A DNA stretch of 60,812 bases, filler included, from Hausera hauseri (lineage: Eukaryota), in NCBI GenBank assembly GCA_046269625.1. It is 10 parts of 10 records of this genome, joined end to end, with 100 filler letters (N's around TTAATTAATTAA, not from the genome) between each part and the next. Parts side by side here need not be neighbours in the genome. Positions count along the whole stretch, not along the records: positions 21,123 to 28,794 come from JBJURY010001237.1; 9 more parts are not named here. One strand, 5' to 3'. Below, in pieces: positions 5,801-39,687 of the stretch. Both the position numbers and the translations under genes were made by a program. The stretch's first letter is position 1; the number at the start of each line of letters is the position of its first letter. The notes beneath the pieces are model-generated. The model searched no databases. It had not been told where the DNA came from and worked only from the letters and a program-made list of their open reading frames with translations.

Positions 5801-6376
5801 TAAACCTATTACAATCAAACTAAAGCCACTTTACTGGTTTTTAGCAGGATACGCACTGATACATACCATTTTAGCTGTCTTTAGTAGGATATACACTGAT
5901 ATGAAAGCCAGTGTACTTGTCTTTAGGATATAAAGAGTTGCGTGGAGATGTGTCATTGCTGTCCGAGACTCTACCAGTGGTAACGAACACTGACTGCTTT
6001 TGTGGATCGCTGTCGAAGAAACGAATATGCATTTGCCTCTTCATTGGATATTGTAACAACATGGAATATGTATATATGACATTAGAATTATGATGGAAAC
6101 GTCAGAAAGGAAAAGATGAGAAAATATAATAACACATTCAGCTGTAGAGGTGTATGTGGAGTTACTGTCCTCATTTTATTTCTTGACCAGCGGTACATTT
6201 TAAAATTATAATAATGTTATTCTCGTTGCCTTAGTAATATTGTTGATTCTAAGTTTGTTTGTTATGCTTTTATAAACACAGCCCCTCTAAAATGTTAAGA
6301 CTAGATTCGATTATGACTATGTGTTCGCTAATTCTTTTATTTTAACATTCATTTTAACTGTTGTTATTCTCAACAG

Positions 6377-7634: not shown

Positions 7635-8300
7635 GTAAGGTATAGTAGTCATAAGTGTACAGGGGATCTTGGCATCCGGGGTAAGTGATACTTGCAAGTA
7701 ATTACTAGGAGAAACTTCCCCCTCCTAAATTAAGCAATTATAGTAAAGACTAGTTATTGTTCATGTTTTGATGAGACTGGAGACAATCTATCATATATTA
7801 GAACAGCCTGGGATTCTATCATCACTATCACCTTTCCCCTACCACACGTAGACTTTTTGGGAACACTGAAAGATTCATTGACGACTTCCCTGGATTTGTT
7901 TCTTTTCCGTGCTGCGTTACGTGATGCTCTGGATGTTGACATCACCATGTTCTGCAATTATGTATTAACGCCCTCTTTTCCTCCGCGAACACAGCAATTA
8001 TGTATTCGCTATCTCCATTCTCTTGAGCGCAAAACAATTCTGTATGAAATTCTGTCTTGCTCCTGCAAGGAGATTATCTCTTTGTCCCTTTTATGGAAAG
8101 AAATAGCTCACCTTCTTTTTTACAACACGGTCTGCAAAGTCTTCGACATTATGGAATGAGTGGGCGGCTTCACCGCATTTCTGTGAACACAAACTTGTAT
8201 AAATTAACTATCTACAGATAATCTGTATTCTTAATGAAGAACCCTCCAAAGATTTAGCTTGTTATTATGGATTTTTTTGGGAGGGTGTGTGGGGGGGGGG

Positions 8301-9633: not shown

Positions 9634-9733
9634 NNNNNNNNNNNNNNNNNNNNNNNNNNNNNNNNNNNNNNNNNNNNTTAATTAATTAANNNNNNNNNNN
9701 NNNNNNNNNNNNNNNNNNNNNNNNNNNNNNNNN
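9634..9733. other. Artificial contig spacer
   Basis: 44 N + TTAATTAATTAA (stops in all six frames) + 44 N. Confidence 0.97.
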
Positions 9734-10219
9734 TTCTTTTTAAAGTTTCAATTGTATCATTTTTGTGTCTGAGGTCTATTTGAGCATCTGACAACTGTGA
9801 TTTGAGATTTTCCAATTTAACATTCAAAGAAGCAACTTATCGATCGGTCGGAGAATTTCCGAATTCCGTTCTTAATTAATCAAAAAGTTTATCAGATGAT
9901 GATTTGACTTCGAGTCTAGATATTTGTTCAATTAATTTATTCGTTTTCCTAACTCATCCTGAGAAGCTTTGATTTGTTCTTGTAGTTTGAACAGATGCAA
10001 ACGCTCGTTCGGGGACGGTAATTTTGCATAGGATGCTCGGCTACCTGTGTTTAACAGGAAACAAACCAAGATTCAGTGGTGCTCGCTCCTTCGACGAATC
10101 TTGGAAAATTTTCGAGGCGGGAAATCGGGCCCAACTATGAATCCGAAGCGACGGAAACGGACGCCTGGCTGCGTCCGACCAAATAGACCAGAGGGCACCG
10201 GCCACTGCGGGCACCACAT

Positions 10220-12746
10220 AGCTTCTGGCCAACGTAATGAACGATCCATCATGGTCAAAATGAACTGATGACCGTTTTCAGGAGGAAGGAGTGGCTTCAA
10301 ATGTTTGGTGATTTTAAATTTCTGGCAAGCCATGCATTCCTTAATCCACGCTTGCGCATCAGAACGCATTGACGGCCAAATTACCTGTGGGTGGAGTAAA
10401 CGAAAAGTGGCCTTAGCGCCAGGGTGGTGTAGCGAATGCACACTGTTAAACGCTTGCCGTTGTAAAGGTGGTGCGAAAATTATTACTGATTGATCTGGTT
10501 TGGAAGTGTCTAAAGCCACGCCGTCAACAATTGTGCAAGACTTAAAAGAATTAAGCATGTCCTGAGGTGGCTGGTAATGTTGAAGTTGTACTTGATAGAA
10601 GATTGGTGAAAAATTAATCGAACCAACCGTCCTAGATAAAAAATCGGCAAACAAATTATTAACCCCGTTAATATGTTTTATGTCAAAGTTAAATGTTGAC
10701 AAATATAATATCTGTCGTTTTTGGCGTGAGGAAAGATGTTTCATAGCCATGATGTTTAGCAAGGGCTTGTGATCGGTCTGTATGGTAAAATGGTGAGCAA
10801 CAAGAAGGTGGGAGAAATGCTTTAAAGCGAGAACGATGGCCAATAATTCTTGACCGAACGTTGAATACCTAGTTTCAGGGAATGTTAGCTTAAGAGAAAA
10901 AAATTCTGGCGGTTGATATTTTCTTTTGTGGACTTAATGAAGCACAGCACCTACCGCAGTTGTTAAAGCGTCTGTAGTAAGGATGAGTTTCGCATCAGGC
11001 TTAGGGAAAGCGAGAATGTCGACGGTCTTAATTCCTTCGCGTAGCTTATCAAACTTATCAACCAGTTCAGGTGTCCACTGAAATTGGCTTACGTTTTTTG
11101 CCGCCGCTTAAGTGTGCAAATGGTGCCTTACGTTCAGAGCAGTACGGCACATACTTATGAACGAAGTGCAAAGTTCCCAAAAAGCTTCTCATTTCTGTTG
11201 TTGTTCGAGGTAGCTACACCTTTTTATGGCTTCAACTCAATCGGGCTGAGGAGAGTGACCTTCAGCAGAAATAATGTAACTATGGAAATTTATACGCTTC
11301 TGGGAAAAGTAAAATTTGGCAGAATTGACCTGCAGATTATGCTGGTGTGAACGTCGCAAGATTGATCTGAGATGTTCCTCATTTTGTTGGTTCAAAGAGA
11401 AAACAACTAATATGTCATAAATATATGGGTGAGCATATGGAAAATGAGAAAGGATAGCATCAATGTGGCGTTGAAAAGTCTGTGCGGCATTCCATAGGCC
11501 GAAAAGCATGTACAGATATTTGTAAAGGCCAAAAGGAGCAGTTACGGCTGTTTTTAGATATGATCTGGTGCCACCGGAATTTGGTGGTAGGCTTTGAATA
11601 AACCAATGGTAGAATAAATTGTGATATTGTTAAGACGGTGTAAAATATCCTTAATGAGTGGTAGCGAACATGCATCCATTATTGTCAAAGTGTTCAACTG
11701 ACAATAATTGCTACATGGTCGAAAAGTTCCGTTTTTCTTTTGCACGACATGTAATGGTGATGACCATGGGGATTTAGAGCGACGTACAATGCCGAAACGT
11801 TCGAGTTCTAGAAATTCGGCTTTAACCACCTGTCTACGAGGAGGAGATAATGGACGCACTTTTTAGCGGATAGATCTTTGACGTTGTGTGACAATGTGGT
11901 GAAAAGTGGTAATTGCTGGAGTAAAGACTTCTCTTTTTTAATTATTCTAGAACAGGTTACGTTAATGAATTGCTGAAGACTTGCAGGTAATTGTAAAAAG
12001 TTTGGTGGGAGCGAGGTGGTTTTATCCGTAACTGATGCAATTTGGACGTTATTTGGTGTTCTAAAATGAAGTGGTATTCGATTCAGGATGGTAGTACTGA
12101 AGATGGTAGTATAGATTGTATTTTATCTAATGATTCGGCAGTGGTAACAGAATCACTTTCATCACCGTGCAAACTCCAATCGCCAGTAATATTGTTCATC
12201 AGTAATTTATAAAATATGGTACAATGATTGTAAGAAAAAGGTTTGTTCAACGGTTTTTTAATATCGGCTTTCGAGTAATATTCACCTGTACGACAGCCGA
12301 AATGGTATTGGCGTGATCAATTTGCTCCTTATTGCAACCACTTGTTAAGCAACGTTGCTTGCAATTGACAAGTAGATTATAGTGCGAAAGAAAGTCGGAT
12401 CCTAAAATGGCTGTCTGGACGTTTACAACGGTAAATGTCCAGTGAAACATTGAAGTAAATTTCGGAAGGGTAAAAGAAAGCCTGCATGTACCGGAAACGT
12501 GTAGCGGTTGTCCAGAAGCGGTAAATAGAAGTTTATTTTTGGATGAAGTGTGTTGAGTTGAAAAGTGAGCGGCAGTAAGGACATCGCTGCACCTGAATAG
12601 ACGAGGAAATCTATATGGCGGAATGTTGATAACGTAGTTACTGCTTTTACTGTAAATACGGTGAATGATAGTTTTTGGCTGGTAGAAACTGAAGAATGGC
12701 CTTCACCAAGACTCGTCGTAAGCTCTGGCGGCGGAATTAATTTTTT
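10220..12746 (-). pseudogene. pol: pol pseudogene (PR, RT, RNase H, 5' integrase)
   Basis: ORF fragments 12247-12450, 11554-11859, 11237-11509 and 10073-10843 with frameshifts. Integrase lacks the VHVDIVGP segment seen in the 35-kb copy and runs into unrelated sequence at ~10220. Confidence 0.9.
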
Positions 12747-14060
12747 GGCAGTGGTGAACTTGGGCGGCTGTTAGAAGACAAGACAGTATGTCCGACGTTC
12801 GTATGCTGTGTGCTGCTTCTAAAGGTACAACCAGGAATACACTTATGCGCCTCATTCTTAAATTTTGAGTGGTAGATGCACATAGGTTTGTTAACTTGAT
12901 ACTTTTGACTGTACAAGCGGCACCCGAGATGATATTTTTGTGATTTACGAGCAAACCTATCATGGTAGAAACAGATCAGCGATCGCGCAGGAGACGGTGA
13001 CCGACCTCTGGATACAGACCGTGTGCGATCGGAGGTGGAACTCTTTCGTTGAGACAAAGAGATTTTATTTAAACTATCATTGATATTGTTTATTGTATTA
13101 TGTAGGACTGCGTTTTCAGTACGCAACTGTTGAATTTGATATTCTAGTGTGTTGTCGTTTGCTGTAAGTGATGCAGAAATGATATGCTGTTTGTTTAGGT
13201 GTAAGACCTCGTAATTTTTTGCCTGCAAGTTCGGCTCAATTATCCAGCGCCGTCGATTCCTCGACGATGGTAAGCAGAGCCCTGATCTGAATCGGTAATG
13301 CATTTAGAAAGTAACGCCGTAATAGATAGGAATTATTTTGTTTTGCAACGCCGAGTGTTTGCAGTTGAGTGAGAGAGGTTCTGAGAAAATCGGATAATTT
13401 TTGTGTACCCATAGCATTATCATTGAAGAATCTATGGATTATGGAATCCATAGACAGTTCCTTGAGTTTCAAAACGGCATTATAAAGATTGGTGTACGGG
13501 TCGGAGTGTTGATAGATGTCTAAGATATCGTGAAGAGAAGTTTTTACTGTGTTTGGTAAGAGGCAAAGTAAACTATGAGCTTTGGCAGATGGATCAATAA
13601 TGTTGTTAGACTGCAACCAGAGTTTGTGAAAGTTAAGCCAGGTTTTGCTGGACTTTTCATGATCAGTAAAGTACTTGCATTAAGAACAAGTGTGTTTGGA
13701 TGGCGAATGGAAGGTGCATAAGCGGTGAAAGTAGATGGCATGGTTACGGTCGTTGATTTTTGGTGAAAGTGAAAGGTGATGGTTTAGAGGTAGTTTTGTC
13801 AGTTGTGTCAATGGTGGGCGAAAATTCTATGCCACCATAAATACGAATGTGTACGCGAATAACGACATAACGGGGTGAAGGAACAAAAAGGTTGCGGAAA
13901 TTGGCATTAATTACAGGTAGGTTGTTGTAAGTCAGGTAAAAATCAGAAATATTAGTGAAGCGTAGTAAGTAATTGTGCAAGTAATATACGTCAATAAAAT
14001 ACGTTGCATTGTGAGTAATTGGCAATTATTAAGGAAGAATAAAACGGAAAGTGCCAGCGT
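12737..14060 (-). pseudogene. gag: gag pseudogene with N-terminal ubiquitin-like domain
   Basis: FYLTYNN...IRVHIRIYGG (ends 13831), capsid-like MGTQKLSDFLR..YFLNALPIQIR, knuckles CFYH.. and CIYHSKFKNEAHKCIPGC, ends KN*. Confidence 0.8.
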
Positions 14061-15142
14061 TGGCCCTAGTGGTTAATGTGGTGACGCAGTGGACCATGGC
14101 GTAGGATCCACTGACATTGGACAGACGGTCGGACAGTCAGTCACGCTGATGTACTCCAAACTCAACAGTTTTGTTGTGCGTACTGTGCAGGATCGCTATT
14201 TGAATTACTTTTAGGGGTCTGAACAATGTCAAATCTTGTTACACACATTTATTCTCATAAAGTGAGAAATTGCCACAAGGGCTGTTGCATTTATGTCATT
14301 TTCTCTTAAATCAAATGTGATGAGCTGTAATGTATCACCAAGGTAATCAGCAGTTGCTATACCGTTTTTGCGTGTTAATTTGCGACATGGCAGACACGGC
14401 CTCAGTAATGAACGATTAGTCAGCAAACCTGCACGACGTGAATGGTCAGAAACACTAGAAATCAGATGGTTGTCAATATTGAGGAACTGTAAACGTTTTT
14501 TATTATGTCGGCCAACGTAAGAATTGCATTATAAGGTATGGGGTCGTACCGGGTGCTGAGACTATTCAAACCAGTTTCTGTCCTTTCATATTCAGTTCCA
14601 TCATGTGGATGTATGGGCTGATCACAAATACCATCAGCAATATGGCCTAACCCGACGTTCCATTGGGGATTATGCTTTGCATTCGATAACTCTAAATTGC
14701 GAATGACATGGAGCAAAGAACCCAATTGGATTCCGGTAGATCGAAACATACGATTAAGTGTCAAATATAAGTCGTTCAAATGAAAGTATAATATTAGGGC
14801 TAAAGAAGATATTAGTGGGTTATATGAGCAAATAACTGAGGTCTCTAAGTAAATGGGCCTTAAGTGACAAACGCAACGGAGGGCTATGTTTAAAGAGGGT
14901 GATGTTATGTCAACAGCAGACAAGTTATGAACAAAAACAGGTGGGAAAAATAAGAAATAGGAATTATTAATAAAAAGCATATGAAAAAACTGTATGCCAG
15001 ATGAATAGTACACAATAATAAATCTCACCCCATCGTGTATCAGTTTCGCCGAAAAGTATATATAGGGATTGTCCATAAAGCCCACCAGATTGAATGCTGT
15101 TATTTCCGTCTGTTTCATTGTGTTAGGATTTCTGGACAGACT

Positions 15143-15672
15143 GAGTATCTCATACACGTATTCTTCAACTAAATTATTTGCTGCTGCCTTTTCCTTTTCC
15201 AATGTGATCTGCACCTTCATTTGACTCTTTCGCCGTAAATTCGTTGATACGCTGCACGCTGTACTGCAAAATGGGTGCATTCAATGGAAGATCGATATGC
15301 TTGGTAAATATGTTTGATGCATCCACCTCAACTTTCACCGGCTTCACCACAGCCTCTACTAATTGCGCCTGGAAAAATGTGAAAATACCCTTGTTGTTTA
15401 CACGCAATTTTACGTAAACTTTCGAAGGTTCTCCATGGAAACTTGGCTGGACTTCGGGTATTGGGAATGATACAATCAATTTCTTGTTAGTTGGTATGTC
15501 ATCACCTTCAGAATATTTCGCTTCCAAACAGAAATCAGCTAATCTGTTAAATGTCCGTTGTTGCTATACCGGACATGAATGCCATTTTGGATAAATTTAT
15601 ACAGTCTCCGATCCGTCTTGATCCCCATAATTCAGTGAAACCGAATAAGTGCAAACGTCCGTAACACTAAAA
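15143..15672 (-). pseudogene. HSPA4: HSP110 (HSPA4/HSPH1/Sse1-like) substrate-binding-domain fragment
   Basis: FSVTDVCTYSVSL..YPKWHSCP..TFNR..FCLEAKY..SKVYVKLRVNNKGIF..IDLP..LEKEKAAANNLVEEYVYE aligns with HSP110 motifs; contains stops and a frameshift. Confidence 0.8.
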
Positions 15673-15749: not shown

Positions 15750-15849
15750 NNNNNNNNNNNNNNNNNNNNNNNNNNNNNNNNNNNNNNNNNNNNTTAATTA
15801 ATTAANNNNNNNNNNNNNNNNNNNNNNNNNNNNNNNNNNNNNNNNNNNN
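15750..15849. other. Artificial contig spacer
   Basis: N-run with TTAATTAATTAA core. Confidence 0.97.
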
Positions 15850-18800
15850 TCTCTTCATCTCCCTATCTCCTATCTCTCTATCTCTCTATCTCTCTATGTC
15901 CCAATCTCCCTATCTCTCGACCTCTCTATCTCGCTATCTATCTATCTGAATCCCTATCTCTCTTTCTCTCTACCTCTGTATCTATTTCCCTATCTATCTA
16001 TCTCAAACTCTATTTCTCTATCTTTCTATCTCTCTATCTCTCTATCTCTCTAACTCTATCTCTCCATCTATCTATTTCTCTATCTCACTATCTCTCTATC
16101 TACCTCTCTATCTCTCTATCTCTCTATGTATCTATCAATCAATCTATCTCTCTATCTCCCTATCTCCCTATTTATCTATCTCCCAATATGTATATCGCTC
16201 TATCTCCTTATCTCTTTATCTCTCCATCTCACTGTCTCTCTATCTCTCTATCTCCCTATCTCTCTATCTCCCTCTCNNNNNNNNNNNNNNNNNNNNNNNN
16301 NNNNNNNNNNNNNNNNNNNNNNNNNNNNNNNNNNNNNNNNNNNNNNNNNNNNNNNNNNNNNNNNNNNNNNNNNNNNNNNNNNNNNNNNNNNNNNNNNNNN
16401 NNNNNNNNNNNNTATCTCCATATATTTCTCTCTGTCTATGTCTCTATCTCACTAGCTCTCTATCTCTCTATCTCTTTGTATCTCTATATCTCTATATCTC
16501 TACCTATCTATCTGCCTCTCTGTCGCTCTATCTCTATCTATATCTACCTCTACCTATCTATCGCTCTATATCTCTATCTCCCTATCTCTCTATCTCTCTA
16601 TCTGTCTCTCTGTATCTCTATCAATCAACCTCTACCTCTCTATCTCTATATCTCTTTATCTCCCTATATCTCTATCTCTTTATCTCTATATCTGTCTATC
16701 TGTCTATCTCTCTGTCTCTCTATTTCTCTATCTCCCTATCGCTATATCTCTCTTTCCCTCTATCTCTCTATATCATTATCTATGTATCTCTGTGTCTCTC
16801 TATGTCTCTAACTCCATATATCTCCATCCCTCTATCTCTCCATCTTTCTACCTCTCTATCTCCCTATCTCTCTATCTCTCTACCTCTCTATCTACCTCTC
16901 TATCTCTATCTCTCTAATTATCTCTCTATCTCTCTATCTCCCTATATCTGTATCTCTTTGTCTCTCTATCTCTCTTTCTATCTATCTCTCTCTTTATATC
17001 TATCTCTCTATATCTCTATCTCTCTATCTCCCTATATCTCTATCTCTGTATCTCTGTATCTCTCTATGTCTCCATCTCTTTATCTCTGTATCTCTGTGTC
17101 TCTCTATATCACTATCTCCACATACCTCCATCACTGTACCTCTCCATCTTTCTACATCTCTATCTCCCTATCTCTCTATCTCTCTATGTGTCTATCTATA
17201 TATGTCCATATCTCCCTATCTCTCTATCTCTCTATGTCCATATCTCTATATCTACCTATATCTCTATCCCTCTATCTTTCTATCTCACTATCTCACTATC
17301 TGACTCCGCATCTCTCTATCTCTCTTCCTCTGTATCTATTTTTCTATCTCTCTATCTCTCTATCTATCTCTCTATCACTCTATCTCCCTATCTCTCTATC
17401 TCGCTGTCTCCCTATCTCTATATCTCTTTATCGCCCTATCTCTCTATCTATCTGTCTCTCTATCTCCATATATCTCTATCTACCTATCTATCTATCTCTC
17501 TGTACCTATCTCTCTATCTCTCTATCTCTCTATCTCCATATATTTCTATCTCTCTATTTCTCTACCTCTCTATCTCTCCATCTATCTATATATCTTTCTA
17601 TCTCCCTATCTCTCTATCTCTACATCTGTCACTCTGTGTCTCTATCAGTCAACCTCTATCTCTCGATCTCTAGATCTCTCTATCTATCTATCTCGCTATA
17701 TCTCTACCTCTATCTCTCTATCTCTATATCTGTCTATCTCTCTATCTCTCTATGTCTATCTCTCTCTCTCTCGCTCTATCTCTCTATGTCTTTATCTCTG
17801 TATCTCTGTGTTTCTCTATGTCTCTATCTCCATATATCTCTATGCCTCCATTTCTCCATCTCTCTACCTCTCTATCTCTCTATCTCTTCATTTCCCTATC
17901 TCCTATCTCTCTATCTCTCTATCTCTATCTCTCTATCTCCCTATCTCTCTATCTCCCTAATTCTGTATCTCTCTATCTCGCTATCTCGCTCTCTATCTCT
18001 CTATACCTCTATTTATCTACCTCTCTATCTCACTATGTCCCTATGTAACTCCTTATCTTTGTATCTCTCTACGTCTCTATGTACCTCTCTGTCTCTCTAT
18101 ATTTCTATCTCTCTATCTGTCTATCTGTCTATCTCGCTATCTCTCTAACTCCATATCTCTCTAGCTGTCTATCTCCATATCTATCTATCTCTCTATATCT
18201 CTATCTCACTATCTCTCTATCTCTTTATCTCTCTATTACTCTAACTCTCTATCTCTCTACCACTCTATCTCCATGTATATCTATCTCTATTTCTCTATCT
18301 ATCTAGCTCTCGATCTCTGTCTCTCTATCTCTCTATGTCCCTATTTCTCTACATACATATCTACCTCCCTATCTTTCTATCTCTCTATCTCTCTATATCT
18401 ACCTCTCTACCTAAATATCTATCTATCTCTCTATCTCTCTATCTCTCTACCTCTATATCTCCATTTATCTATCTCTCTATCTCTCTATCTCTCTATCTCT
18501 TTAACTCTCTATATATTATCTATCTCTCTATCTCCATGTATCTTTGTCTCTCTATTTCTCTACCTCTCTATTTCTCTCCCTCTATCTCTCTATGTCTCTA
18601 CCTCTCTACCTATCTATCTGCCTATTTATCTCTCTATCTATCTCTATATCTGCCTCTCTAGCTATCTATGTCTACCTCTCTATCTCTCTGTCTCCTTACC
18701 TCTCTATCTCTCCATTTATCTACCTCTGTGTCTCTGTATTTCCCTATCTGTCTATGTCTATATCTCTCTGTCTTTATATGTCTATCTCTCTACCAATCTA

Positions 18801-21022
18801 TCTCTCTATCTTTCTATCACTCTATCTCTCTATCTCCATATAGCTCTCTCTCTATCGCTCTATCTCTCTATATCTCTATCTCTCTATCTCTCTATCTCTC
18901 TATGTCTATCTCTCTATATCTCTATCTCTCTATCTCTCTATCACTATCTTTCTATCTATCTCTCTATCTCTCTATCTCTCTATGTCTATCTCTCTATATC
19001 TCTCTCTCTATCTCTCTATCACTATCTTTCTATCTATCTCTCTATCGCTCTATCTCTGTATCTCTGTATCTCTCTATCTCTCTGCCGCCATACATCTCTA
19101 TCTCTCTATCTATCTCTCTAGGTCTCTATCTCTCTATCTTTGTTTCTTTTTCTCTATCTCCCTACCTCCCTATCTCTCTATGTCTCTATCTCCCTATGTC
19201 TCTAGCTTTATATCTCTTTCTCTCTATCTCTCTATGTCTCTATCTCTCTACCTATCTATATGCTCTTTATCTCTCTATCTCTCTATATATACCTCTCTCC
19301 CTATCTATCTCCCTATACCTCTATCTCTCCATCTCTCTACCTTTCTATCTCTCTATCTCTCTATCTCCCTGTCTCGCTATCCCTCTATCTCTCTATCTCT
19401 GTATCTGTCTATCTGTCTATCTTTCTATCTCTTTATCTCTCTACGACTCTATCTACCTCTCTAACTCTATATCTCTATATCTGCCTCTCTAACTAAATGT
19501 CTCTGTACCTCCCTATATCTCTCTCTCTACTACTCCATCTCTCCATCTCTATTTCTCTCTATGCCTCTATCTCCCTATCTCACTATCTCTCTATTTCTTT
19601 ATTTCTTTACCTCTCTATCTCCCTATCTCCCTATCTCTCTATGTCTCTATCTCCCTATCTCTGTAGCTCTTTATATCTCTTTCTCTCTATCTCACTATGT
19701 CTCTATCTCTCTACCTATCTATCTGCTCTTTATCTTTCTATCTCTCTCTATATATATATACCTCTCTACCTATCTGTCTCTCTATCTCTCTATCTTTCTA
19801 TCTCTCTATATCTCTCCATCTGTCTATCTATCTATCTCTCTATCTCCCTTTTTCGCTATCTCTCTATCTTGCTATCTCTGTCTATCTCTCTATACCTCTT
19901 TCTATCTATCCATCTATCTCACTATGTCTCTATCTGAATCCCTATCTCTTTATCACTCTGCCTCTCTCTGCCTCTCTATATCTCTATAGCTCTATCTCTC
20001 TATCTCTCTATCTCTTTATCTCTCTATCTCCCTATCTCTCTATCTACCTATCTCTCTATCTCGCCATATGCCTATCTCTCTATCTCTCTATCTCCCTATC
20101 TATCTATCTCTCTATCTCGTTATCTCTCTATCACCCTATCTCTCTATATCTCTATAACTCTATCTCTCTATGTCTCTAACTCTATCTCTCTATCTCTCTA
20201 TCTCTCTATCTGGCTATCTCTATATATCTCTATCTCCCTATCTCCCTATCAATCTGTCTATCTATCTCCATATATCTCTATCTACCTATTTATCTATCTC
20301 TCTATCTCTCTATCTCTCTATCTCTCTATCTCCATATATTCCTATCTGTCTCTCTCTCTCGATCTCTCTAGCTCTCTATCTCTTTATCTCTCTATGTCTC
20401 TATGACTCTATCTCTCCATTTATCAATCTCTCTATCTCTCTATCTCACAATCTATCTATCTCTCTATCTCTGTGTCTCTCTGTATATCTATCAATCAACC
20501 TCTATCTCTCTATCTCTCTATATCTCTATCTCTCTATCTCGCTATATCTCTATCTCTTTATCTGTCTATCTCTCTTTCTATCTATCTCTCTCTCTTTATG
20601 TCTATCTCTCTATATCTCTATCTCTCTATCTCCCTATCTCTCTATCTCTGTATCTCTGTATCTCTCTATGTCTCTATCTCTTTATCTCTGTATCTCTGTT
20701 TCTCTCTATATCACTATCTCCATATATCTCCATCACTGTACATCTTTCTACATCTTTATCTCCCTATCTCTCTATCTCTCTATCTCTCTATGTGTCTATC
20801 TATCTATGTCCCTATATCCCTTTCTCTTTATCTCTCTATGTCCATATCTATATACCTATATCTCTATCTCTCTATCTTTCTATCTCACTATCTCACAATC
20901 TCTCTATCTGTCACTCTGCATCTCTATCAGTCAACCTCTATCTCTCTATCTCTAGATCTCTCTATCTACCTATCTCGCTATATCTCTACCTCTATCTCTC
21001 TATTTCTATATCTGTCTATCTC
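15850..21022. repeat. Degenerate (TCTCTA)n/(TCTA)n simple satellite
   Basis: Whole contig is pyrimidine-rich TCTCTA/TCTA variants (internal N gap 16277-16411); the S/L/Y/I-rich ORFs are artefacts. Confidence 0.97.
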
Positions 21023-21122
21023 NNNNNNNNNNNNNNNNNNNNNNNNNNNNNNNNNNNNNNNNNNNNTTAATTAATTAANNNNNNNNNNNNNNNNNNNNNN
21101 NNNNNNNNNNNNNNNNNNNNNN
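21023..21122. other. Artificial contig spacer
   Basis: N-run with TTAATTAATTAA core. Confidence 0.97.
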
Positions 21123-21890
21123 AAAGGAAGGTGGTTTTGGACAAGTAATCGGAGAGGTTATATTGACATACGAGTGTGAGACGAAAAACGTATCGATCAA
21201 CGTAGAAGAAAAGAGATGTATACAAGAACTTCCAGTGACATATCAGGACGTCCCAAGATTAGTAACACCAATTACAAGAGTGTTGCTAGCAAACGCCACT
21301 CAACCGACAATTTTGAGAGACTGTAAAACTAGCTTAGGAAAGCCGATGTTCAGACGTAGCGAAATTGACTGGGTAAGTTTACCAAACGGCGGTATTATTG
21401 CACCGCCTACCAAATTGACAGGAACAAACCTAATAAAAGGAATAACCGATGACAAATTTCAAGACAGCCGCGAAGGGTATTTATGGACCAAAAGAAGTAG
21501 AGGCGATCAGACAATTTCTCGCTTTTCCTCGTCAACACACACATGAATTAAACAGAGCAATGCATACAATATTGGAGGACTCGCGCTATCAAGCGAGATG
21601 GGAATCATTACTTGGTGTTGGCTATTACAAGAAAGTAACCACAGAAATATTAAACAAAATTTGGGGAAGATTCCTGATATTCGGACAAGCCGCGTCAGGA
21701 TTTCTAGCGATAGACTTCGTAATTCAATTAGTAAAAGCTATAATTCAAGCAATCATAAGTGAATATGAGATATATACTTTGACAGGATTCTCGTGTAAAA
21801 TTTTAACGGCTATTATTACACCCTTCGGTAAATTCTTAAAAGCTTATGAAGAAAGTAAATGGAAAACAAATGTGGAGCGACATGTGGGTT
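21123..21890 (+). pseudogene. Chuvirus-like glycoprotein (env-like), C-terminal half
   Basis: GEVILTYEC...CIQELPVTY...LVTPITRVL...C...P.F, KGIY..E.EAIRQFLAFP, KIWGRFLIFGQAASGFLAI..VIQLVKAII...Y.LTGFS matches the motif series of Chuviridae-type glycoproteins; frameshift near 21450. Confidence 0.78.
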
Positions 21891-22472
21891 ACCATAATCG
21901 AAAACGCAAAGGACACATTTGATTATAGACAGAAATTCATAGTCAATAAGACACGAAGAAATAATTCCGATAATGAAGAGACTAATGGAGGAGGCATCAT
22001 CACCAGGCCGAGTAGGCACAAAAACTACTCTGTTATGAAACTACCATTACCAATATTTCCACCAACGGCACCTATATATGAAGATAGCGAGAAACAATCT
22101 ATGAGCTCGTGCCAGATAGACATCTATCGGAAGCCGTTTAGTTTAGAGGATCCTTACGAAGGAACAAAACGCTATAGAATATTGCGCAAGATCCACGAAA
22201 CAGAGAGGACCTCGGCTCCACCTTATCGGTCAGCAGTCGACGACCACAATATAATTTACTCACCTACAATACCTAAGCCAAACGAAACGCAATTGATATT
22301 TACTCGAAGCTGTGAGGCACGAAATCTCCGAAACACAGATGTTCAGCCACCAGTTAGAAACCCAAGAGTAGAAAACGCGAATGGAGCGAATAACGAACTA
22401 TACCCAATTGGAGAGTTAAGACAGTTAGTCGAGCAGCCAGTTGGAACCACTGAAGTTACCATCAACGGTTAA
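21846..22472 (+). CDS. Pro-rich linker/cytoplasmic tail between glycoprotein and protease with late-domain-like motifs
   Basis: 208-codon open frame with PTAP (22062-22073) and ELYPIGELRQL (22395-22427); same frame as the downstream protease ORF, separated by one TAA. Confidence 0.55.
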   Translation: MKKVNGKQMWSDMWVTIIENAKDTFDYRQKFIVNKTRRNNSDNEETNGGGIITRPSRHKNYSVMKLPLPIFPPTAPIYEDSEKQSMSSCQIDIYRKPFSLEDPYEGTKRYRILRKIHETERTSAPPYRSAVDDHNIIYSPTIPKPNETQLIFTRSCEARNLRNTDVQPPVRNPRVENANGANNELYPIGELRQLVEQPVGTTEVTING

Positions 22473-22475
22473 AAA

Positions 22476-25400
22476 GTGTCTACCACACGACAGCCCAATA
22501 TAGCACCAAGCTATTACGGTACAGTAATCGAAGGCAGACCCTTCGCAAAGATTCAGTTGGAAGATTTGGAGCTTTACGCACTAATAGATACGGGATCTGA
22601 AATCTCACTGATAAAATATGATTCGATACCACAATTCTTACGGAAACAATTATATCCACCTCCTACGACAGACCCAGGAAGCATTGGAGCCTTTGGACAA
22701 TCGTAGAAAAGTAAATTTTGTTGGAAACCAGAGATTCACATAATGGGACAAATTTTTCATCACGAATTCTCAGTAATGGAGCCATTAACGGACGATGTAG
22801 TGTTAGGGTGTGACCTATTGAGACAACTACCTAATATATCAATCGATTTCAGTGCAGGCAAGTTGATAGAACTTGGTCCAATAAAGGAGTTAAAACCACT
22901 AAAGACAGAAAATTTGGAGAAGTGTGGATTCCAGTGGATGAAACCATACCATCTAGAACAGAAATCCTAATATATGCTCAGATACGTCAGGATGATAATC
23001 AGCCGATATATTTTGGACCAAAGGAATCGCTCGATCCAAACCTCGTGCTCAGCAATATTTTGACAAGAGTATCAACAGGCCGCGTGCCAATCAGAATAGA
23101 AAATAATGCGCCAACTCCAACCAAACTGTACGCCAATACTACTCTAGGCCACACGTATAGAGTGTCATCGATTACCATCGAAGAGAAGCCATATAAGGGT
23201 GCCGAATTTCCACCCCACGTTGAGACTAAATTTACACCAGAATCATATTGTCGATTCTACGAACTACTTTGTTGCTATAGCTCAATTATCGCGAGAGATA
23301 AAGAGGATATTGGCCGAGCCAAAACTTTGAGGCTCACGATTCCGCTTAAGAAAAAGCCAGGATCTAAAGACGAAATAGACTTAGAGGATCAAAAGATGCC
23401 GAAATGGTATCCTCCTCCACACTAGCTAAGGCCAGAGATAACTAAGGAAGTTGAACGAATGTTAAAGGCCGACATAATTAGACCAAACTATCGATCTTGG
23501 TATTCACCTATACTAATGGTTAAGAAGAAAGGTACCAGTAAGCACCGATTTCGTATCGATTACCGAGCGTTAAACACACTGATGGTGAAAGACTCTTCCA
23601 TTACCATCAGTAAAGGAAGCTTTAGACAGACTTTCGGTAGCGAAATGGTTTACTACGCTCGATTTGCAATCTGGATATTGGCAGGTAGAGATAGAGGAAG
23701 AAGATCGTTACAAAACGGCATTTAAGACACATTACGGTATATATGAATTTAATGCTATGCCATTTAGAATTACTACCGGACCGGGCATCTTTACCCGTAT
23801 GATGAATAAGATGCTGATGGGACTTGAACACGCATTCGCCTATTGGGACGATGTCATGATTGCCTCGAAAACGGAAGAGGATAACTTAAAGGATATCGAA
23901 GGTACGCTCATGAGATTAGAGCAGGCTGGATTAAAACTGAATCCCAAGAAATGCAAATGGGCTAAAAATGCTGTATCATACCTTGGACACATAGTTGGAG
24001 AAGGAGGATCAAAACCGGATAAATCATTATTAAGTAAGATATCGGATTGCATGGAACCTCAGAACCAAAAGGAATTAAGACATTGGTTGGGTTTGTGTGG
24101 GTATTATGCCACTTACGTGCCAGAAAACGCAAAGATAAATGCACCCTTGTATCGTTTATTAAAGAAAGGAATCAAATGGAAATGGACCGATGTTGAACAA
24201 AAGTCTTTTGATGAAATGAAGAAAATTATGATATCTCGACTTCAACCTACCATTTATAATCAAAACAGACGCCAATAAGGAAGGTATCGGATATGAACTA
24301 ACCCAAAAACAAGAAGACGAGGAATTAGAACACTCGATTGCATAAAGAGGACGTTCTTTAAAGAAAGAAGAAAAGAACTATTTGTTACGGAACTAGAAAC
24401 ATTAGCAGCAAAAGAATCACTGCGGCATTTTAATGTATATGTCTACGGACAAAAGATCATAATCGTTACGGATCATAAGGCAGTTACGACCTTGAAGGGT
24501 ACAGTGAATAATCCAACTTGTAGACTCAACAGATAGATTGAGGAGATATCGCGATATAATATCGAGTTCCAATAAAAGCCCGGAAGTAAGCATGTCGATG
24601 CTGACGCATTATCGAGACTTAAAACCAAAACAAGCGCAGTTACAGTAATGAAGAAAGCACACCTTAAAGATTTAATAGAAAGACAAAGGACTCTCACACT
24701 AAATAAGGCATAAAAGATTGCTGTTAAACAGAGAAAAGACAAGGTTATACAACAGATTATCGAGTTCGTCGAGACCAACGTAACAACCAAGGCTCATCAG
24801 TTATGGAAACACTTACGACAATATGGTCACAAATACTGCGTCGCTGGAAATTTGAACCGCGAAAATATGTTATATTACGAACGAAAAGCACGGAAATTAG
24901 TCGTCATACCGAAAGAACTACGAACGGAAGTACTCATGGCCGAACACGATTCATACTTAGCGGGACACATGTTATGGAAAAAGACATTAGAAAGGATTTT
25001 AAATAAGTAATATTGGCCGAGCATCTATATCGACGTAAGAAATTGGGTGAATGCTTGCAAAGCATGCGCAACTAAGCAAAGAAAAGTAAAAAAATTACGT
25101 CGCTGAGCTTAAACCTACTGACGTGCCCGATAGGCCAATGCAAGCAATGTCTATGGATATTGTAGGACCGTTACCTACAACATACAAAAATAACAAATAT
25201 ATTCTGACCTGTGTAGGTCGATTGACTTATTTCGTCGAGCTTATAGCGTTACTAGACCAAAAGGTTGAGACCTTGGCAGAAGCGGTAGTTCAGAAGATCA
25301 CTTGCAGATACGGGCCATCCGAACAAACATTTACACACCGAGGAAGAAACTTCACGAGTGAACTGTTCGAGAAAATTACCAAAATTTTTGAGATCGAACG

Positions 25401-26000
25401 ATTAACTACCACAGCTTACCTTCCCCAATGTAAAGGAATGGTCGAGTGAATGAACGCGACCGTTATACAGATCTTATCAACAGTAGTCACGAAGGACCAG
25501 AAAGATTGGGATAAGTTCTTAGAAGACACACAGTTCGCCATTAATACTACTCCACATCCTGCGACAGGATTCACTCCATTTTTTATGATGTACGGTTGAG
25601 AAGCTGTACTGCCTACCGACTTAGGACTGATTTCATATAAAACAAGAACAGAAGACTTAGAGTAAAATTTTGTCGAGGTATTACAATCAAGATTACACAA
25701 GTGTTGGGAAATAATCAAAGACGTATCTAAAGACTACCAGGAACAATTTAAGAAGCAGTATGATAAGAATGCTAAACCGCACGATTTAGAACCCGGAAAC
25801 TGGGTTTACGTACACTACCCAGTGGCGGAAAAAGGCACATTTCTTAAACTTACTAGAACCGGTAGGGACCTTATGACGTTACTAAGGTTACGCCGACCAC
25901 AGTTTATATAAATAAAAACGGCAAAGAAGAGGTTGTATCGATTCAGAGAGTAGTAAAGACGGAAATAAGGCCGGATAAACGCTATCATTTGCGTTCAAAT
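22476..26000 (+). pseudogene. pol: Gypsy pol pseudogene (PR, RT, RNase H, integrase)
   Basis: ALIDTGSEISL and VLGCDLL (PR); SPILMVKKK, DYRALN, SGYWQV, KTAF, YWDD (RT); TDHKA (RH); MDIVGPLP, TTAYLPQCKG, GPY (IN); ends RYHLRS; many stops/frameshifts. Confidence 0.93.
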
Positions 26001-27356
26001 AAGATTAATAAAGAAAAGAAAACATCGTCAATCGTAACCAGACCGGTATCATGTGTACAAATAATTCTTGCCCTATCGTTAATCGCTTCGTATATGCCTA
26101 CAGCGAAATCAATAACTAGAGCCGAAAAACTACGATACGCGATGAAACGCCGGGATATCCAAAACATGCAGTCACTTAGAGTACGTGATTTGGATTGGAG
26201 TAAACCATGTGCATGGTTCGAAGCAAGCGAACCGGTTCAGAGCTATGTAAAATTTCAGATAATATTTGTCACCGGAAACACGATGAGAACGTGCGATTTT
26301 CCGTAGGGACATTACAAAAGATGTTGTGATTTAGACTTTGGACGAGCCTACGCATACAGATTTTAAATGTTTTATTCTAATCAGTTTGGAGCTCAAGCTT
26401 ATATACATTTAGAACTTGTAATAAGAATGCCCCAACGGAAGGATGCAAATCAAGCCAAGACGGACGAAACAATCCGAAGCACTGACCCGTTTAAAAGGCT
26501 CTTAGATTATAACATTATGGGAATTTACAAGGACTTGAAGAATCAATGCATACGAATTGAAACTAAGATAGAACTGCCTGGAGACAGACAAATTTCTATC
26601 CGATTTATACCATTGAATGCTTCTATTCCTATTCCAAAGTATTGTTTTTTGGCCAGACACCGATCTACTACGTGCTGCGTAATACAATTATGACAAAAGT
26701 ATCAGTTGCAATTCGATTTGTATAATACGTACCCCGGAGAGCCAAGCACTTATTTGCGTGGATATCGCCCGAGAATTGGAATATGGGAGCTTCCTCTTCC
26801 AACCACTACAAGTAAACCATCTACAAGTCCAAGTACAACTCTTCCTACTACGATCGTCACTTTGGACAAAATACCAGGAAGCATGCCAGTTAAGATTTTG
26901 GCAAAAAGCGACAAAATTGTATTTTATGCAGAAGAGACACTTAGTCGAGACATCAAAATTGAATGTCATACTTTGCACACCAACCAAGTCGTGATCCTGA
27001 AAAAGAATAGTCAAGAAGTTGAATGCAGGTTATTACGACCACAACATGACTATATAATCAGAATTACCGCAAAGGGTAAGAATCCTAAAACTTTAACAGT
27101 ACGAACTCTTGGCAATAAAGTTGAAGTAATGCCATATAAAGATATCAGTACTCAAAATGTATTCACCACGGAAAGTTCTATTGAGCCGAGTAATTTACCG
27201 TTAATAACTATATTTAGTTTGTCAATTTTCGTTCTTGTCATAATAACAGCGATGATTTTTCTAGTTCCCAAAAATTGTAATAAACGCTGTAAAAATCAAA
27301 AGGGATATAAATGGGTAAACGAGCACCGAGACGGACCTTATGATAGCATAACCTGA
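25989..27356 (+). pseudogene. Type I membrane protein (signal, Cys-containing FN3-like domains, S/T stalk, TM, short tail) in frame with integrase C-terminus
   Basis: ORFs 25989, 26367 and 26706 share one frame broken by three stops. Signal-like VQIILALSLIASYMPTAKS, FN3-like LLRPQHDYIIRITA, TM LITIFSLSIFVLVIITAMIFLV. Confidence 0.65.
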
Positions 27357-27949
27357 CAACTACAGATCGGGTTATCCTATCATCAGACAGAGAAAATGTT
27401 TTATTTCAAAACGATGACCTGTCTTAGGATTAACCTTTATTTTTATTTTAGCAGAGTAAGTATGGCCGAGAAGGCGAAAAATTCAGCAGTCAGTTCCAAT
27501 TTCGATATCGATGATTTCTTCCAGCAGCACGTCACTGTTCTTAAACCACTGTCCAAAAGTCTATACCGACAAATTGGAGAAACCCGAAAATCCAGAACTA
27601 TCTAGAGTTCAACCAAGAGAGTAAAAGACCAAACGGACTAAAATGGGGCTTAGAAGAGAATCGACTGGTTCGATTATATGCCATGAGAAATCCAAAAGAT
27701 GCACGAGCATACCTTTTAAGAGATCTAATTCAATATGAGCCGACACATTAGCAATTGTACGTACATGTCGCTGATGGAGAAATTAAATACAGAATCGTAG
27801 GACAATCCTGGAGTACGCAAGAAGGGCAGCAGTGGAAGTTTAGTACTTATGAGCTATGTTGCTAAAGCCTCATGAATTATGCCATAGAATTTAGGATCGC
27901 GGACCTTCCGACCAAAATCATGATCGAGATGACGTAGCGAACCGATGTA

Positions 27950-28645
27950 ATGAAGCCGCTACCACAGTTATTATACGTACAGAAACCATCGGAAGACGAG
28001 GTAGAGCAAAATGGAGAATCTTACAGATTAGTTGCAGACGGTAGGAACACCAGAATACTGGCCGTAAACTATGGAGAAAAAGATAACAGGTGGTATGCTC
28101 CAATTGAGGTCTCTATCAAAAATATTAATGGAGAAGAGATCCTAAATAAAATAATCGCGCCTCGAGTTATAATAAAGGACACTTTTCTTGACGTCACAGG
28201 AATTACGAAAGTTCAGCTTGAAAAAGGAAAGGATTTTTTGGAGATCCAAGAAGATATAAGCCATTGCTTATATGGATACGTCGTTACCGGATTCCGAGTG
28301 CACGAAGCTCTGGAGCGACTAGGAATTAGGCAAGAATACATGGCCGGAATTTGAGAAGTGAGCCGAAACCCAACAGTAGTGAGTCAAGTAGAAAACACGT
28401 TGATGCGGAAAAGAGGTTGTCTGCTTCCTTCCTCAGCATCTCGCGAATCACAGTTCAAAATGATGCTAAAGGCCATGAATGGCGAACAGTTAAAATTCCC
28501 TAAACTAGTGACAACGAGCCAACGAACTAAATTTATAAAGGACACCTATGACCATCTACGAGGGGATCACGAATGGAAACCCAGAAATCCCATACAGAAT
28601 GCGATATGCGACAACAACCCCAAGGCACTGATACAAAAATTTTGA
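27950..28645 (+). pseudogene. REX4/ISG20-like DEDDh exonuclease homologue with catalytic residues substituted
   Basis: EVSIKNINGEEILNKIIAP..DVTGIT..L..G.DFLEIQ..I...L.G.VVTG....AL..L follows the REX4 pattern RVSIVN..G..V.D.FVKP..VSGI...F...Q......L.G.ILVGH...DL; one in-frame TGA at 28352. Confidence 0.65.
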
Positions 28646-28794
28646 AAAGGGTTTAGTGAATACCCGAGCTATAGGCAGATCGAACCCCAAGGACATAACC
28701 GATTTTGAGTAACAATACATAATAACCCAATGGAAGTCCCGAACAACCAACAGAAACCATCAACCAGTAAAGCCCAAGGAGAAGTAACAATAAA

Positions 28795-28894: not shown

Positions 28895-29200
28895 GAATGC
28901 TCCATCGGTTATACGAGGACGGGGAAAATCGACGTCTCTTCGACTCGTCGGTTTTCCTGCCATTGTTCCTGAGACTGATGGCGGCAACCGACCGCATTTA
29001 CGAATCCCTGGCTCCTTCGAAAAGTCAGTTAATTCCAGGCTGCCGTACCATCAAAGCACTGCGCACACTGACGTCGAGCTCCAGCTCGGACGATATTCGA
29101 GCCTGTCCACGTCGACGTCGTAGACTCGGATCGTCTTGATCCGCTACCGAGGAGTCGTATGCCTCCGCAGATGGCGATTGTCATGAAAATAAATGTTCCA
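28895..29200 (+). repeat. Dispersed GC/CpG-rich coding-like repeat, homologous to 53520-53870 (-)
   Basis: HRLYEDGENRRLFDSSVFLPLFLRLMAATDRIYESLAP vs HRFYQDGGNRRLFDLSVFLQVFLTLIAATDRLYESSAP. Confidence 0.75.
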
Positions 29201-29313
29201 ACAATTATCCAGTTTTGTTCATTTATATTTTTGTTTACTTGCTGTTTTATTGTTTTGGCGCAATGAGGTTATGGGGCAGAATTATGGTCTGTATTAAGGC
29301 AGAAACTTCTAAA

Positions 29314-31925
29314 ATGGTGGCACAGAATACCGCACACACGTCCCTTTCGCACAGGACCGTACATACTGGTTCAGGCATTCCGATAAACTCAGTCGTTGAA
29401 AACAATCCTGCTCAAACACCGCACACATCAGATGACAACAGTCAGGATAAAAATCAGAGTAATGCCGTCGAAAACAATCCGGCTACACTCATTCACATCA
29501 CCAAACGTGATTACACAACACCCGCTGACAATATCTTCAGCGCGGCTATCATTCAGGCAATCACAACGAGTGGAACTGAACAAAAGTCGAAGCCTGAATA
29601 TCCAAGCCAGGTTTCACGCACCAACACAGTCAAATCGGCACACAATTCCGATGACACAACAAAACCGCAAGTGATGCAAATTTCCATACGCGGATTACGC
29701 AACACGAAAGCATATCGTTTTTTGACACACATGTCTCTTAAGGCAATGCTACAACAGCTAGCCATTTCATATCCGGACCACATTTTTTCACGCAACGCGA
29801 ACATTTTGCGTCCATAGGATAGTCCAATTTTGGATCATTTCCCTAAAAATAACGCGACACTGCTCGCTACTCCGAAACTAAAAGGAGGCGCTGATGACCA
29901 CAAGCCGGACAAAAAAGCCGCAACTGCATCATCAGCACCGGCCAAACCTAGCAAATTAGCATGTCCCACTTTCTTCATAGGTTTGGACGGAACTCCATTA
30001 AAGTGGTTCCATGTGTTTGAAACATGGACTACTCAATTCAACATCACCGGCCAACTAAACGAGTCCTTAACACTAATACAATACCTGCAGCCAACAAGGC
30101 TCGCAGCAATAACGGATTTGGACACGTTACTGTCAAATGAAAAGGCGTTTGATAAAATCAGAGCAACAATATGCAAAGCATACCTGCCATCCCAACAGGA
30201 CCAGTTCAACTTGGTCTTCACCAAGCGACAGACAGGGAATATGAAACCTTCTGCTCTGCTTCAAAAGTTATGCTCAGAATTGAGCAATGCTGAGCTGGAC
30301 CTCCACAGCAATCAAATTCAAGCGGTACTTGTGCTATTACCGCCCGATACCACTTTGGGCGATGTGGCATCAAAAGCCAACAAAATACATGAGTGCACTA
30401 AAGGTACCGTAGAATCCGCATCAACGGAAAACATTCACTGCGTCACGGCGACCCACCAAAATAGATTGAACACCATTATTTCCGTACTGCACGCACTTGT
30501 AACGCACAAGAATCCGTCAGCCAGGGACTGTGTTTACATGTTTATCCTTTTTATATTTAAAAGTTCCATACACAAGGATGAGAACACTAAAGCAAATTTT
30601 CCAAAATTTGCCATTTCCACACACGATTTGGAGAATACGCCCATAAATGTTTCCATGGTTGTCAATTCGACAAGCCATCCGCAAATATAAAAATGCGAGG
30701 CACTTGCATTTATCACAATTATTTCGGTCCAGATGTAAAAATCTGTCGACCCAGCTGCAAATTTCACAAACCTAAATGGGCTCAGACGACCAACGGCACT
30801 TCGACTGGAAACTCAATCACCACAACTGCCGTGCACAAATAGCGAACGCATTGTCGATGCTATTTTCACCCTCAAGGCGGAGCCACTACACTCTGACATC
30901 TCGAAACAACTCCATTTTCTAATCGACACTGGTGCAGCTTTATCGCTGATACCTAGCGCATACGCTAGACCTACGCTGGTCTCCCATGCATCGCTCAAAG
31001 CTGCCAATGGCACGCGTATAGCAACTACAGGTACACTGTACCTACAATTTCACCTACAAGGCCGAAGATACGCTTGGTCATTCATATTGGCCGATGTCAT
31101 GCAACCAATCCTTAATTCTGACTTCCTAGATCACTACGATCTCACAATTAATTGCCTAAATCAACAACTCACCAGCGGGGGCAATCATTACCTCCACCCG
31201 CATTCACATTAACTACAAATGCTGTCACGGGCATTAAAATCGCAAATCCCATTGACATCGCTCCATTGCTGCAAGCGCAATACCCTAACCTGTTGAAACG
31301 CTCAGCACAACCAACACAGAAAGAGATGAATACATCACACTCTCTCGTCACATCATGTGACCGACCGATTCGATAACCCCGGAGGGAGCTTGACCCTGTC
31401 AAGCGAGCAGCCGCGGAAGCCGAATTCCGACACCTTGAAGAAACAGGCATCATACGCCATTCCACATAACCGTGGGCATCACCATTGCACATAATTCTCA
31501 AAAAGAACGGATCATACCGGCTTGTGGTGACTATAGAATGTTTAGTAACGTCACCATCCACGATTCATATCCAACACCGTTGGTAACAGACATATTGCAT
31601 TGCCTACATGATGCCGCAATATTCAGCACAATCAATCTGGAAAGGGCATACCATAAGATCACAGTGGCTACCGAAGATATTCCAAAAACTGCCGTAATAA
31701 CGCCTTTTAGTTTGTTCGAGTATCTACGTATGCCTTTTGGCTTACGGAATGCAAGTCAAACATTCCAACGCCACATAGACCAAGTCCTCATCGACATGCC
31801 TTATGCAATCTCGTATATAGATGACATATTGATTGCATCACCCAATGAAGCGACTCAAAAAACACATCTCGAACATGTTTCATAGGTTGAATGAAAACAA
31901 CCTAGTTAAACATAAACAAATGTTC
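29314..31925 (+). mobile_element. Decayed CsRn1-type Ty3/Gypsy element, divergent subfamily (UBL-gag, PR, RT; 3' truncated)
   Basis: MQISIRG...TPKLKGG (29674-29889), capsid P.FF...P.KWF..FE, two knuckles (CHFH..CFHGC, CIYH..CRPSC), FLIDTGA, PWASPL, YIDD. Confidence 0.9.
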
Positions 31926-34693: not shown

Positions 34694-35049
34694 GCGGCAA
34701 GGCGCGAACTGTAAAGATAAAACGAAATACGCAATGAACGCAAAACAAAGTAATGTGAACTAACTATACGGTCTTCCTATATACAAGGCGTTGTATTCCT
34801 TCAGATTTAGCACTATACTGTAGGTGTCGTTGAATCCGGTTGACGAGTTGATGAGGATAAAACTATGTCGGATGTCGTAGTTGAAGTTGGTATATTGTTC
34901 AGAGACGAGGAATGGGCTGGATGGGAAAATATAGGAGAAGAGGGGAGAAAAGTGGGGATATTAGTAGAAGGGATTTTAGGGGTAGGTTCTAGTAAAGGAG
35001 AAGGTGTAGGGTTTAGAGAAATGGGAATGGGAAAAGGTATTTGCGTCTG

Positions 35050-38000: not shown

Positions 38001-38341
38001 ATTGCTGTGCGGACGTTAGCGACGGTAAACGTCCAATGAAATGTGGAATGGAATTTTGGTAAAGCGAACGACAATGTAGATGTACCTGAAATGTCAAGCG
38101 GTTCTCCAGAAGCCGTAAATAACAATTTAGCTTTGAATGGTGAATTTTATACGGGGAACGTGAGTGGTAGCAGAGAAACTGCAGCGCCTGTGTCGATAAG
38201 GAAATCTATGGATTAAATTGTTAGTGTGATTATCGAAGCCTTTAGTGTAAAGACTACAAAAGAAGAGTGTCGGCAGGTAATATTAAAGGAGTTGCCTTTG
38301 CCAGACTCTGCCGTGAGTACTGGCGGCGAAATCAGTTTTTT
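35050..38341 (-). pseudogene. pol: pol pseudogene (PR-RT-RH-IN)
   Basis: ORF fragments 37670-38125, 36874-37395, 36353-36547, 35973-36359 and 35103-35930. Confidence 0.92.
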
Positions 38342-39650: not shown

Positions 39651-39687
39651 CGTTGGTAAACAGCAAGCTGCGTAATGTGGTATTTCT

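Follow-up and report, generated by a model that had tools for sequence, protein, structure and literature searches.

We consider it very likely that 21124-28794 holds a copy, decayed and truncated at its 5' end, of a Ty3/Gypsy element of the GAG-ENV-POL (Burro/NERV-like) kind that is repeated and has a probable land-snail host, an assessment that takes in the mechanism proposed below. In the intact relatives of this element one ORF encodes gag (CCHC), a spacer, a signal, a class III glycoprotein (GP) with its anchor, protease(s), reverse transcriptase (RT), RNase H and integrase, followed by a further signal, a fibronectin type III (FN3)-like ectodomain and an anchor, and a separate exonuclease-family ORF lies 3' of this polyprotein ORF. 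The window (the whole stretch of DNA that was analysed, 60,812 nt) keeps the same order from the middle of the GP onwards. The gene order flagged by the initial annotation, a GP before pol in a Gypsy element, is already published and is ordinary when taken alone; the second membrane protein, the exonuclease-like ORF and the probable land-snail host with a highly repeated family are the parts that we did not find in print.

Structure of the element and its relatives

The features of the window copy, from 5' to 3', are the following.

21023..21122: spacer on the 5' side (N44, 12 bases, N44), which truncates the element
21124..21465, plus strand: GP piece 1, class III gB-like, chuvirus-type (PF24664 E 1.4e-6, profile positions 368-436)
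21467..21850, plus strand: GP piece 2, in the next frame, with the membrane-proximal part and the anchor (PF24664 E 1.9e-18, profile positions 474-603)
21840..22472, plus strand: Pro-rich linker with no family match, terminating in a stop in the window copy
22473..22900, plus strand: aspartic protease with DTGS at 22587 (RVP E 1.2e-6, stop read as X)
22916..23596, plus strand: spacer region and 5' end of the RT (tblastn identity of 24-31% to five GP-bearing polyproteins, no Pfam family); the spacer is, as we take it from position and look, dUTPase-like
23592..24620, plus strand: RT (YWDD at 23841) and RNase H, broken (RVT_1 E 1.3e-27, RT_RNaseH E 9e-10)
24900..25935, plus strand: integrase with H2C2 zinc domain, core and GPY at 25866, broken (Integrase_H2C2 E 4.9e-17, rve E 4.3e-6)
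26043..27356, plus strand: second membrane protein, in frame with the integrase GPY tail (hydropathy, structural model and Cys motif)
27430..28794, plus strand: remnant of a 3' accessory ORF, of which 28058-28405 is related to the ORF behind the polyproteins of loci L001 and L002
28795..28894: spacer on the 3' side (N search)

The element copy measures about 7.7 kb and lies on one contig (21123-28794); because this contig holds no N, the GP and pol are joined without an intervening assembly break. Most of the collinear segments are interrupted by stops, and the reading frame changes within the GP (at about 21460-21480), in the overlap of GP and linker (about 21850-21920) and in pol, with a stop at 22470 ahead of the protease. 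The initial annotation had the GP followed by linker and protease with no gap; the contiguity stands, and the three do not form one open frame here. A single GP-linker-protease frame is seen in relatives only, and the window copy, split over frames, is dead, being unable to make the products of the element. Gag, any 5' LTR and the first ~56% of the PF24664 profile are cut off by the spacer at 21023-21122, and no 3' LTR or LTR-like repeat was seen in the 3' end of the element ahead of the spacer at 28795. Gag, the LTRs and the primer site thus fall outside the window, and their presence in the element family is taken from the relatives.

PF24664 (Monjiviricetes_fusion) has 653 profile positions, and the window GP corresponds to its C-terminal part, under half of the whole. 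Both GP pieces match this family and named chuvirus GPs also match significantly, in agreement with the chuvirus-like identity that had been proposed. The motif series behind that proposal is present, with CIQELPV (21217) and TPITRVL (21265) sharing one frame and GIYGP (21476), FP (21524), IWGRF (21659) and FG (21680) the next one, and the expected hydrophobic C-terminal segment was recovered at 21671-21760. Piece 1 is 29-38% identical to polyprotein relatives in 12 of the 12 tested; a PDB sequence search with the GP piece returned no significant match. The AlphaFold model of the relative P0122 (pLDDT 77.7) matches chuvirus glycoprotein models (E 2e-42) and herpesvirus gB (E 3e-14), and the class III type, for which a check of the fold had been suggested, is therefore confirmed.

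The partner of the GP is of Gypsy type, as had been read from its pol motifs. Gypsy-type profiles match the Pol pieces, which follow the Ty3/Gypsy (Metaviridae) order PR-RT-RH-IN, the integrase combines H2C2 with GPY, and the RT matches include Pols named transposon-297-like and ty3-gypsy. No BEL/Pao-specific Pfam family, the mark of an Anakin-type Pol, was found on the window Pol pieces. The gB-type GP stands directly 5' of the retropepsin, hence upstream of pol as originally stated, and the Pol groups with those of env-before-pol elements. A free chuvirus or non-retroviral EVE was discarded as an identity for the stretch, given the retropepsin 3' of the GP and the nesting of the GP among polyprotein GPs.

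A full HMMER scan with GP piece 2 yielded 119 proteins at E ≤0.001; an earlier word-index search with the same piece among longer proteins had given none from 191 candidates. Behind the GP, 12 of the 13 best matches carry an aspartic protease in the same protein, and RT and RNase H continue in P0121, P0124, P0126 and the cluster members P0240 and P0243, with integrase in all of these except P0124. A metagenome scan added two loci out of 54 candidate stretches: L002, with one ORF of 3703 aa containing CCHC knuckles, GP, proteases, RT, RNase H and integrase, and L001, with an ORF of 3426 aa whose 5' end is open. Nothing was found in IMG/VR with the GP alignment as query (0 of 43 stretches) or in GTDB with P0121 (0 of 21). 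From GP to integrase the window is collinear with P0121, P0126, P0240, P0243, L001 and L002, the six full-length relatives, P0124 being excluded from this count as it ends in RNase H. Gag was recognised in relatives as zf-CCHC (L002, P0129) and Retrotrans_gag (P0133, E 1.7e-4), most relatives have four hydrophobic segments per polyprotein, and no LTR pair was found in L001 or L002.

Some relatives are more elaborate. Several protease-like domains per polyprotein, some of them 3' of the integrase, occur in P0240, P0129, P0126 and L001; P0240 has ankyrin and C2H2 inserts, P0122 a Bcl-2-like domain before the GP and L002 a ubiquitin-like domain, and in P0167 immunoglobulin domains are fused N-terminally to a PF24664 glycoprotein. 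P0121, a full GP-PR-RT-RH-IN polyprotein, is filed under a Flavobacteriaceae MAG and is most likely a mis-binned contig of an animal retroelement.

The window is divided at nine sites, such as 9634-9733 and 21023-21122, by artificial spacers that all have the same make-up (N44, 12 bases with stops, N44), and linkage across them is therefore uncertain. Ahead of the spacer at 21023 lies a degenerate, CT-rich simple repeat of some 5 kb (~15840-21022) whose period is 8 bases. Four decayed Gypsy-like remnants lie at 10073-15563 (minus strand), 29140-31885 (plus), 34813-39710 (minus) and 45918-49410 (plus); one has a weak DUF7041 gag match, those at 10073-15563 and 34813-39710 are 74-91% alike, and none of the four gave a GP match. 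No second copy of the GP, FN3 or exonuclease region was found elsewhere in the window. An uninterrupted, divergent fibrillarin-like ORF at 55584-56540 (plus; PF01269 E 2.8e-54) is possibly a retrocopy or a paralogue. A decayed gene encoding dsRNA-binding C2H2 fingers is present in two inverted copies that are 85-94% alike, at ~41900-44760 (plus) and 56975-59608 (minus), and looks to us like a processed ZFR-type pseudogene. The ORFs at 51167-51685 (plus) and 52364-53134 (minus), both family-scanned, and at 53550-54314 (minus), which was translated only, belong to no convincing family.

The second membrane protein and the exonuclease-like ORF

The product of 26043-27356 comprises a signal-like segment (26043-26096), a Cys-containing ectodomain with a Thr/Ser/Pro stretch and an FN3-like region (~26860-27115), an anchor (27189-27281) and a short tail; three stops interrupt the window copy between 25866 and 27353. 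The initial annotation mentioned neither this protein nor the exonuclease-like ORF. A signal and an anchor follow the integrase in frame in the window and in all six full-length relatives. Among ordinary Gypsy Pols (≥950 aa) the same is found in 1 of 78, and this exception carries PF12259, an F-type env fusion. BLASTP can hardly align the ectodomains (best off-self E 0.004), yet seven of seven contain a motif with two cysteines that ends in an FN3-like strand, the motif having been written with five of these sequences already seen and some of the relatives being close kin (P0243 and L002 are 62% identical), and it has no match in 125,806 aa of control Pols. Leave-one-out HMM scores exceeded those of all 500 shuffles for each of the seven sequences.

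The AF2 single-sequence model of 26850-27185 is an eight-strand sandwich (pLDDT 70.9). Its best match in a structure search is a fibronectin type III domain with Z 9.0, a value near what common beta-sandwiches give, at rmsd 2.0 over 78 aligned residues, and other Ig-like sandwiches follow at Z 7-8. The top Foldseek match is likewise FN3, with a best E of 6e-3 and none reaching 0.001, and Pfam fn3 gave no match on the protein. The modelling is thus suggestive of an FN3 fold for the ectodomain and not conclusive.

The 3' ORF has its own counterparts, since 28058-28405 matches the ORF of L001 at E 4e-7 and that of L002 at E 6e-6. These two ORFs in turn match RNase_T (PF00929; E 1.4e-5 for L001 and 1.1e-3 for L002), which we take to be DEDDh. 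The window copy gave no RNase_T match, and the acidic motif of the L001 and L002 ORFs is not recognisable in it. An exonuclease-like ORF lies 3' of the polyprotein in all three loci with DNA context, and one may speculate that it trims or shields the RNA of the element. Coiled-coil-looking ORFs of no significant family stand beside it in L002 (11375-12040) and L001 (12229-12663). For neither module did we find a published description in the paper texts searched; the words "fibronectin" and "exonuclease" are absent from the text and supplements of PMC13524379.

In the mechanism that we propose, the polyprotein would be threaded several times through the ER membrane, with both ectodomains lumenal and Pol cytosolic, between the GP anchor and the second signal, and its processing would fall to signal peptidase and to the protease that the element encodes. 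With Pol tethered to the envelope tail, the enzymes could be carried to the site of budding, and fusion of the enveloped particle with a neighbouring cell, for example of the germ line, would be the work of the gB-like trimer. The FN3-anchor protein, on the same membrane, may serve as an attachment or adhesion accessory, or otherwise as a host-facing decoy or modulator.

Between these roles, we would give a host-facing accessory something near an even chance, attachment or triggering a lesser, still substantial one, and any other role a small one. A receptor-like accessory unrelated to entry, captured for use as a decoy or in adhesion or signalling, would be comparable to those of Burro (Bcl-2, ankyrin and ubiquitin-like). 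The look-alikes of the protein in the Atlas are cell-surface FN3 and cytokine-receptor proteins (0.84-0.88, a lead), its ectodomains have diverged extremely in sequence, and relatives bear host-modulating domains of the kinds just named (P0122, P0240 and L002, respectively). Class III proteins of the chuvirus and rhabdovirus types are, moreover, thought to act independently of a partner. On the other side, position, topology and Cys motif are constant in seven of seven whereas the other accessories come and go, and the protein is encoded in the fusogen's own polyprotein. We regard as rather doubtful the wider proposal of a clade of two-glycoprotein reverse-transcribing viruses that would reach land snails and have multiplied widely in them. 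In this proposal the env-before-pol Gypsy polyprotein would combine a gB-like fusogen with an FN3-like protein for attachment or triggering, Pol lying between the anchors, and an exonuclease accessory would be added; if true, a retroelement would divide attachment and fusion between two proteins in a herpes-like manner.

Host, copy number and history of the glycoprotein

In sequencing run X1, 20,079 contig records fall on the 7.7 kb at 80-100% identity, 957 of them at ≥99%, and in run X2, from a second organism, there are 1,911; the summed contig depth is no measure of copy number, and X1 could be the source sample itself. All 30 bins along the element are covered in both runs, and these records indicate a highly repeated family, its 3' modules included. 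An open ORF of 437 aa at 6332-7645 (plus strand) encodes a leucine-rich-repeat (LRR) protein of a family expanded in land snails, whose named relatives (≤50% identity) are nearly all from land snails (Candidula, Bradybaena), with one weak match in Physella; the host is therefore probably a land pulmonate, as judged from a gene that lies on another contig, across N spacers.

That separation of the LRR gene from the element contig would also accommodate a contig derived from a nematode, flatworm or other passenger and not from the snail genome, and nematodes, bryozoans and flatworms are the published GAG-ENV-POL hosts in the available text of PMC13524379. We consider such an origin improbable, since the number of X1 records suggests that the main genome sampled in this run harbours a large family, which is present in the second organism as well.

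The history of the GP was approached through both halves of the element. The six polyproteins found via the GP alone took ranks 1-6 of 76 against the window Pol pieces, and in a tree of three Pol pieces (31 rows, taking the best 30 of the 76 Pols, with published Burro and NERV sequences not among the rows) they and the window make up one clade (SH-aLRT 97). With the RT alone, the top five of 127 matches are GP-bearing, and the RT-only tree leaves the window outside the GP clade (98) with no settled position. The window GP groups with polyprotein GPs at 92-94 in a quick tree of 66 rows, which left out matches of <205 aligned residues and also P0127 and P0130 (cluster mates of P0240 and P0243), and is nested among them with support 100 in a tree of 21 rows (the window and 20 chosen relatives). 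Its fine placement is uncertain because its branch is long in all trees. The comparison with free viruses suggested by the initial annotation thus places the GP with the polyproteins and away from the two named chuviruses tested.

These data bear directly on a recent, independent, Anakin-like capture of a chuvirus GP gene by a snail Gypsy element. Named chuvirus GPs are significant matches (P0149 at E 3e-7, P0168 at E 7.8e-6), and the survey in PMC13524379 calls, in the text available, GAG-ENV-POL elements non-monophyletic in POL. The polyprotein GPs, however, outscore the named viruses against the window GP (86-144 versus ≤72 bits), and AU tests reject the window GP as sister to Wufeng shrew chuvirus 2 (p 0.003), to Lishi spider virus 1 (p 0.001) and to two free-standing GPs (p 2e-5). 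The GP is not alone in this, since Pol and the 3' modules track the same relatives. Recent capture is thereby largely refuted and appears very improbable. As the GP and Pol group with polyproteins and not with the two named chuviruses tested, old inheritance appears the likelier history. Least probable of all is a chance neighbourhood, in which a free endogenous viral GP fragment lies beside, or was mis-joined to, an unrelated Gypsy insertion: the window copy is not one open frame and begins at a spacer, no listed X1 or X2 contig spans the whole stretch and the joints that bridge the GP tail and the linker are short-sided (29 and 33 bases), but there is no N from GP to integrase, the order and the matching partners are the same in six intact relatives, and the GP bins are about as deeply covered as the pol bins in both runs.

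Relation to known elements

The old-inheritance reading of a GAG-ENV-POL element sets the window apart from Anakin, to which the initial annotation had presented it as a surprising counterpart. That surprise is not supported, as Gypsy elements with an in-frame env between gag and pol have been described, both in Burro (in the available text of PMC6431247) and in the GAG-ENV-POL elements of nematodes, bryozoans and flatworms. Anakin resembles our element in that the same broad glycoprotein family was captured by an LTR element (PMC7642597, as far as its available text goes), but Anakin is a mosquito BEL/Pao element, whereas the window element has a Gypsy-type Pol and its GP belongs with Gypsy polyprotein GPs. 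The available text of Dezordi 2023 (PMC10084718) reports no clear Gypsy capture; that of PMC13524379 (Chary and Hayashi) describes Chuviridae-like glycoproteins adjoining gypsy POL in 114 arthropod elements. Troyka was ruled out as a match, having neither env nor the GPY motif in the part of PMC12440569 available. The bdelloid LTR elements (available text of PMC5408684) also have a 3' accessory exonuclease ORF; their ORF3 is RNase D-like (DEDDy), whereas the relatives described here have RNase_T (PF00929) together with a gB-type env before pol.

The nematode endogenous retroviruses (NERV), as far as their available description goes, are alike in having env before pol in a metavirus. Those of Sacco et al. 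2022 reportedly have a continuous gag-env-pro-pol ORF, are said to be restricted to nematodes and carry other accessory ORFs. The window element is set apart from them by description, not by sequence.

Burro/GYPSM1, the planarian giant Gypsy, shares with the element family an in-frame env between gag and protease with matches to mononegavirus fusion GPs, a dUTPase-like region between PR and RT, and many copies (available text of PMC6431247). The relatives found here share extras of the Burro type, namely Bcl-2 before the GP (P0122), ankyrin with several proteases (P0240) and a ubiquitin-like domain (L002). The window copy, by contrast, shows one protease, a short linker and a probable land-snail host, and none of the Bcl-2, BIR, ankyrin and MATH domains of Burro sensu stricto (>30 kb) was found within its 7.7 kb. 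Section 7 of PMC6431247, the part of the text concerned with Burro, mentions neither an FN3 membrane protein behind the integrase nor an exonuclease ORF.

Also close are the GAG-ENV-POL errantiviruses of Chary and Hayashi (PMC13524379), which have a Gypsy POL and an HSV/gB-type class III env before it and which the available text places in Nematoda, Bryozoa and Platyhelminthes, citing Sacco 2022 for the nematodes. The mollusc elements of that survey carry ENV_F in 10 of 10 gastropod rows and in the 15 of 36 bivalve rows listed, and in 30 of its 43 gastropod rows unannotated ENV-POL candidates are counted for species including Achatina (4/0), Arion (6/0) and Haliotis rufescens (3/1). Transmission is, according to the same text, unexplained for most elements, and the conserved second membrane protein offers a concrete candidate attachment factor for the gB-type envelopes of invertebrate retroelements. 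A gastropod host, if true, would show that surveys restricted to intact copies overlook large decayed families, and would add a fourth phylum to those in which the GAG-ENV-POL arrangement occurs.
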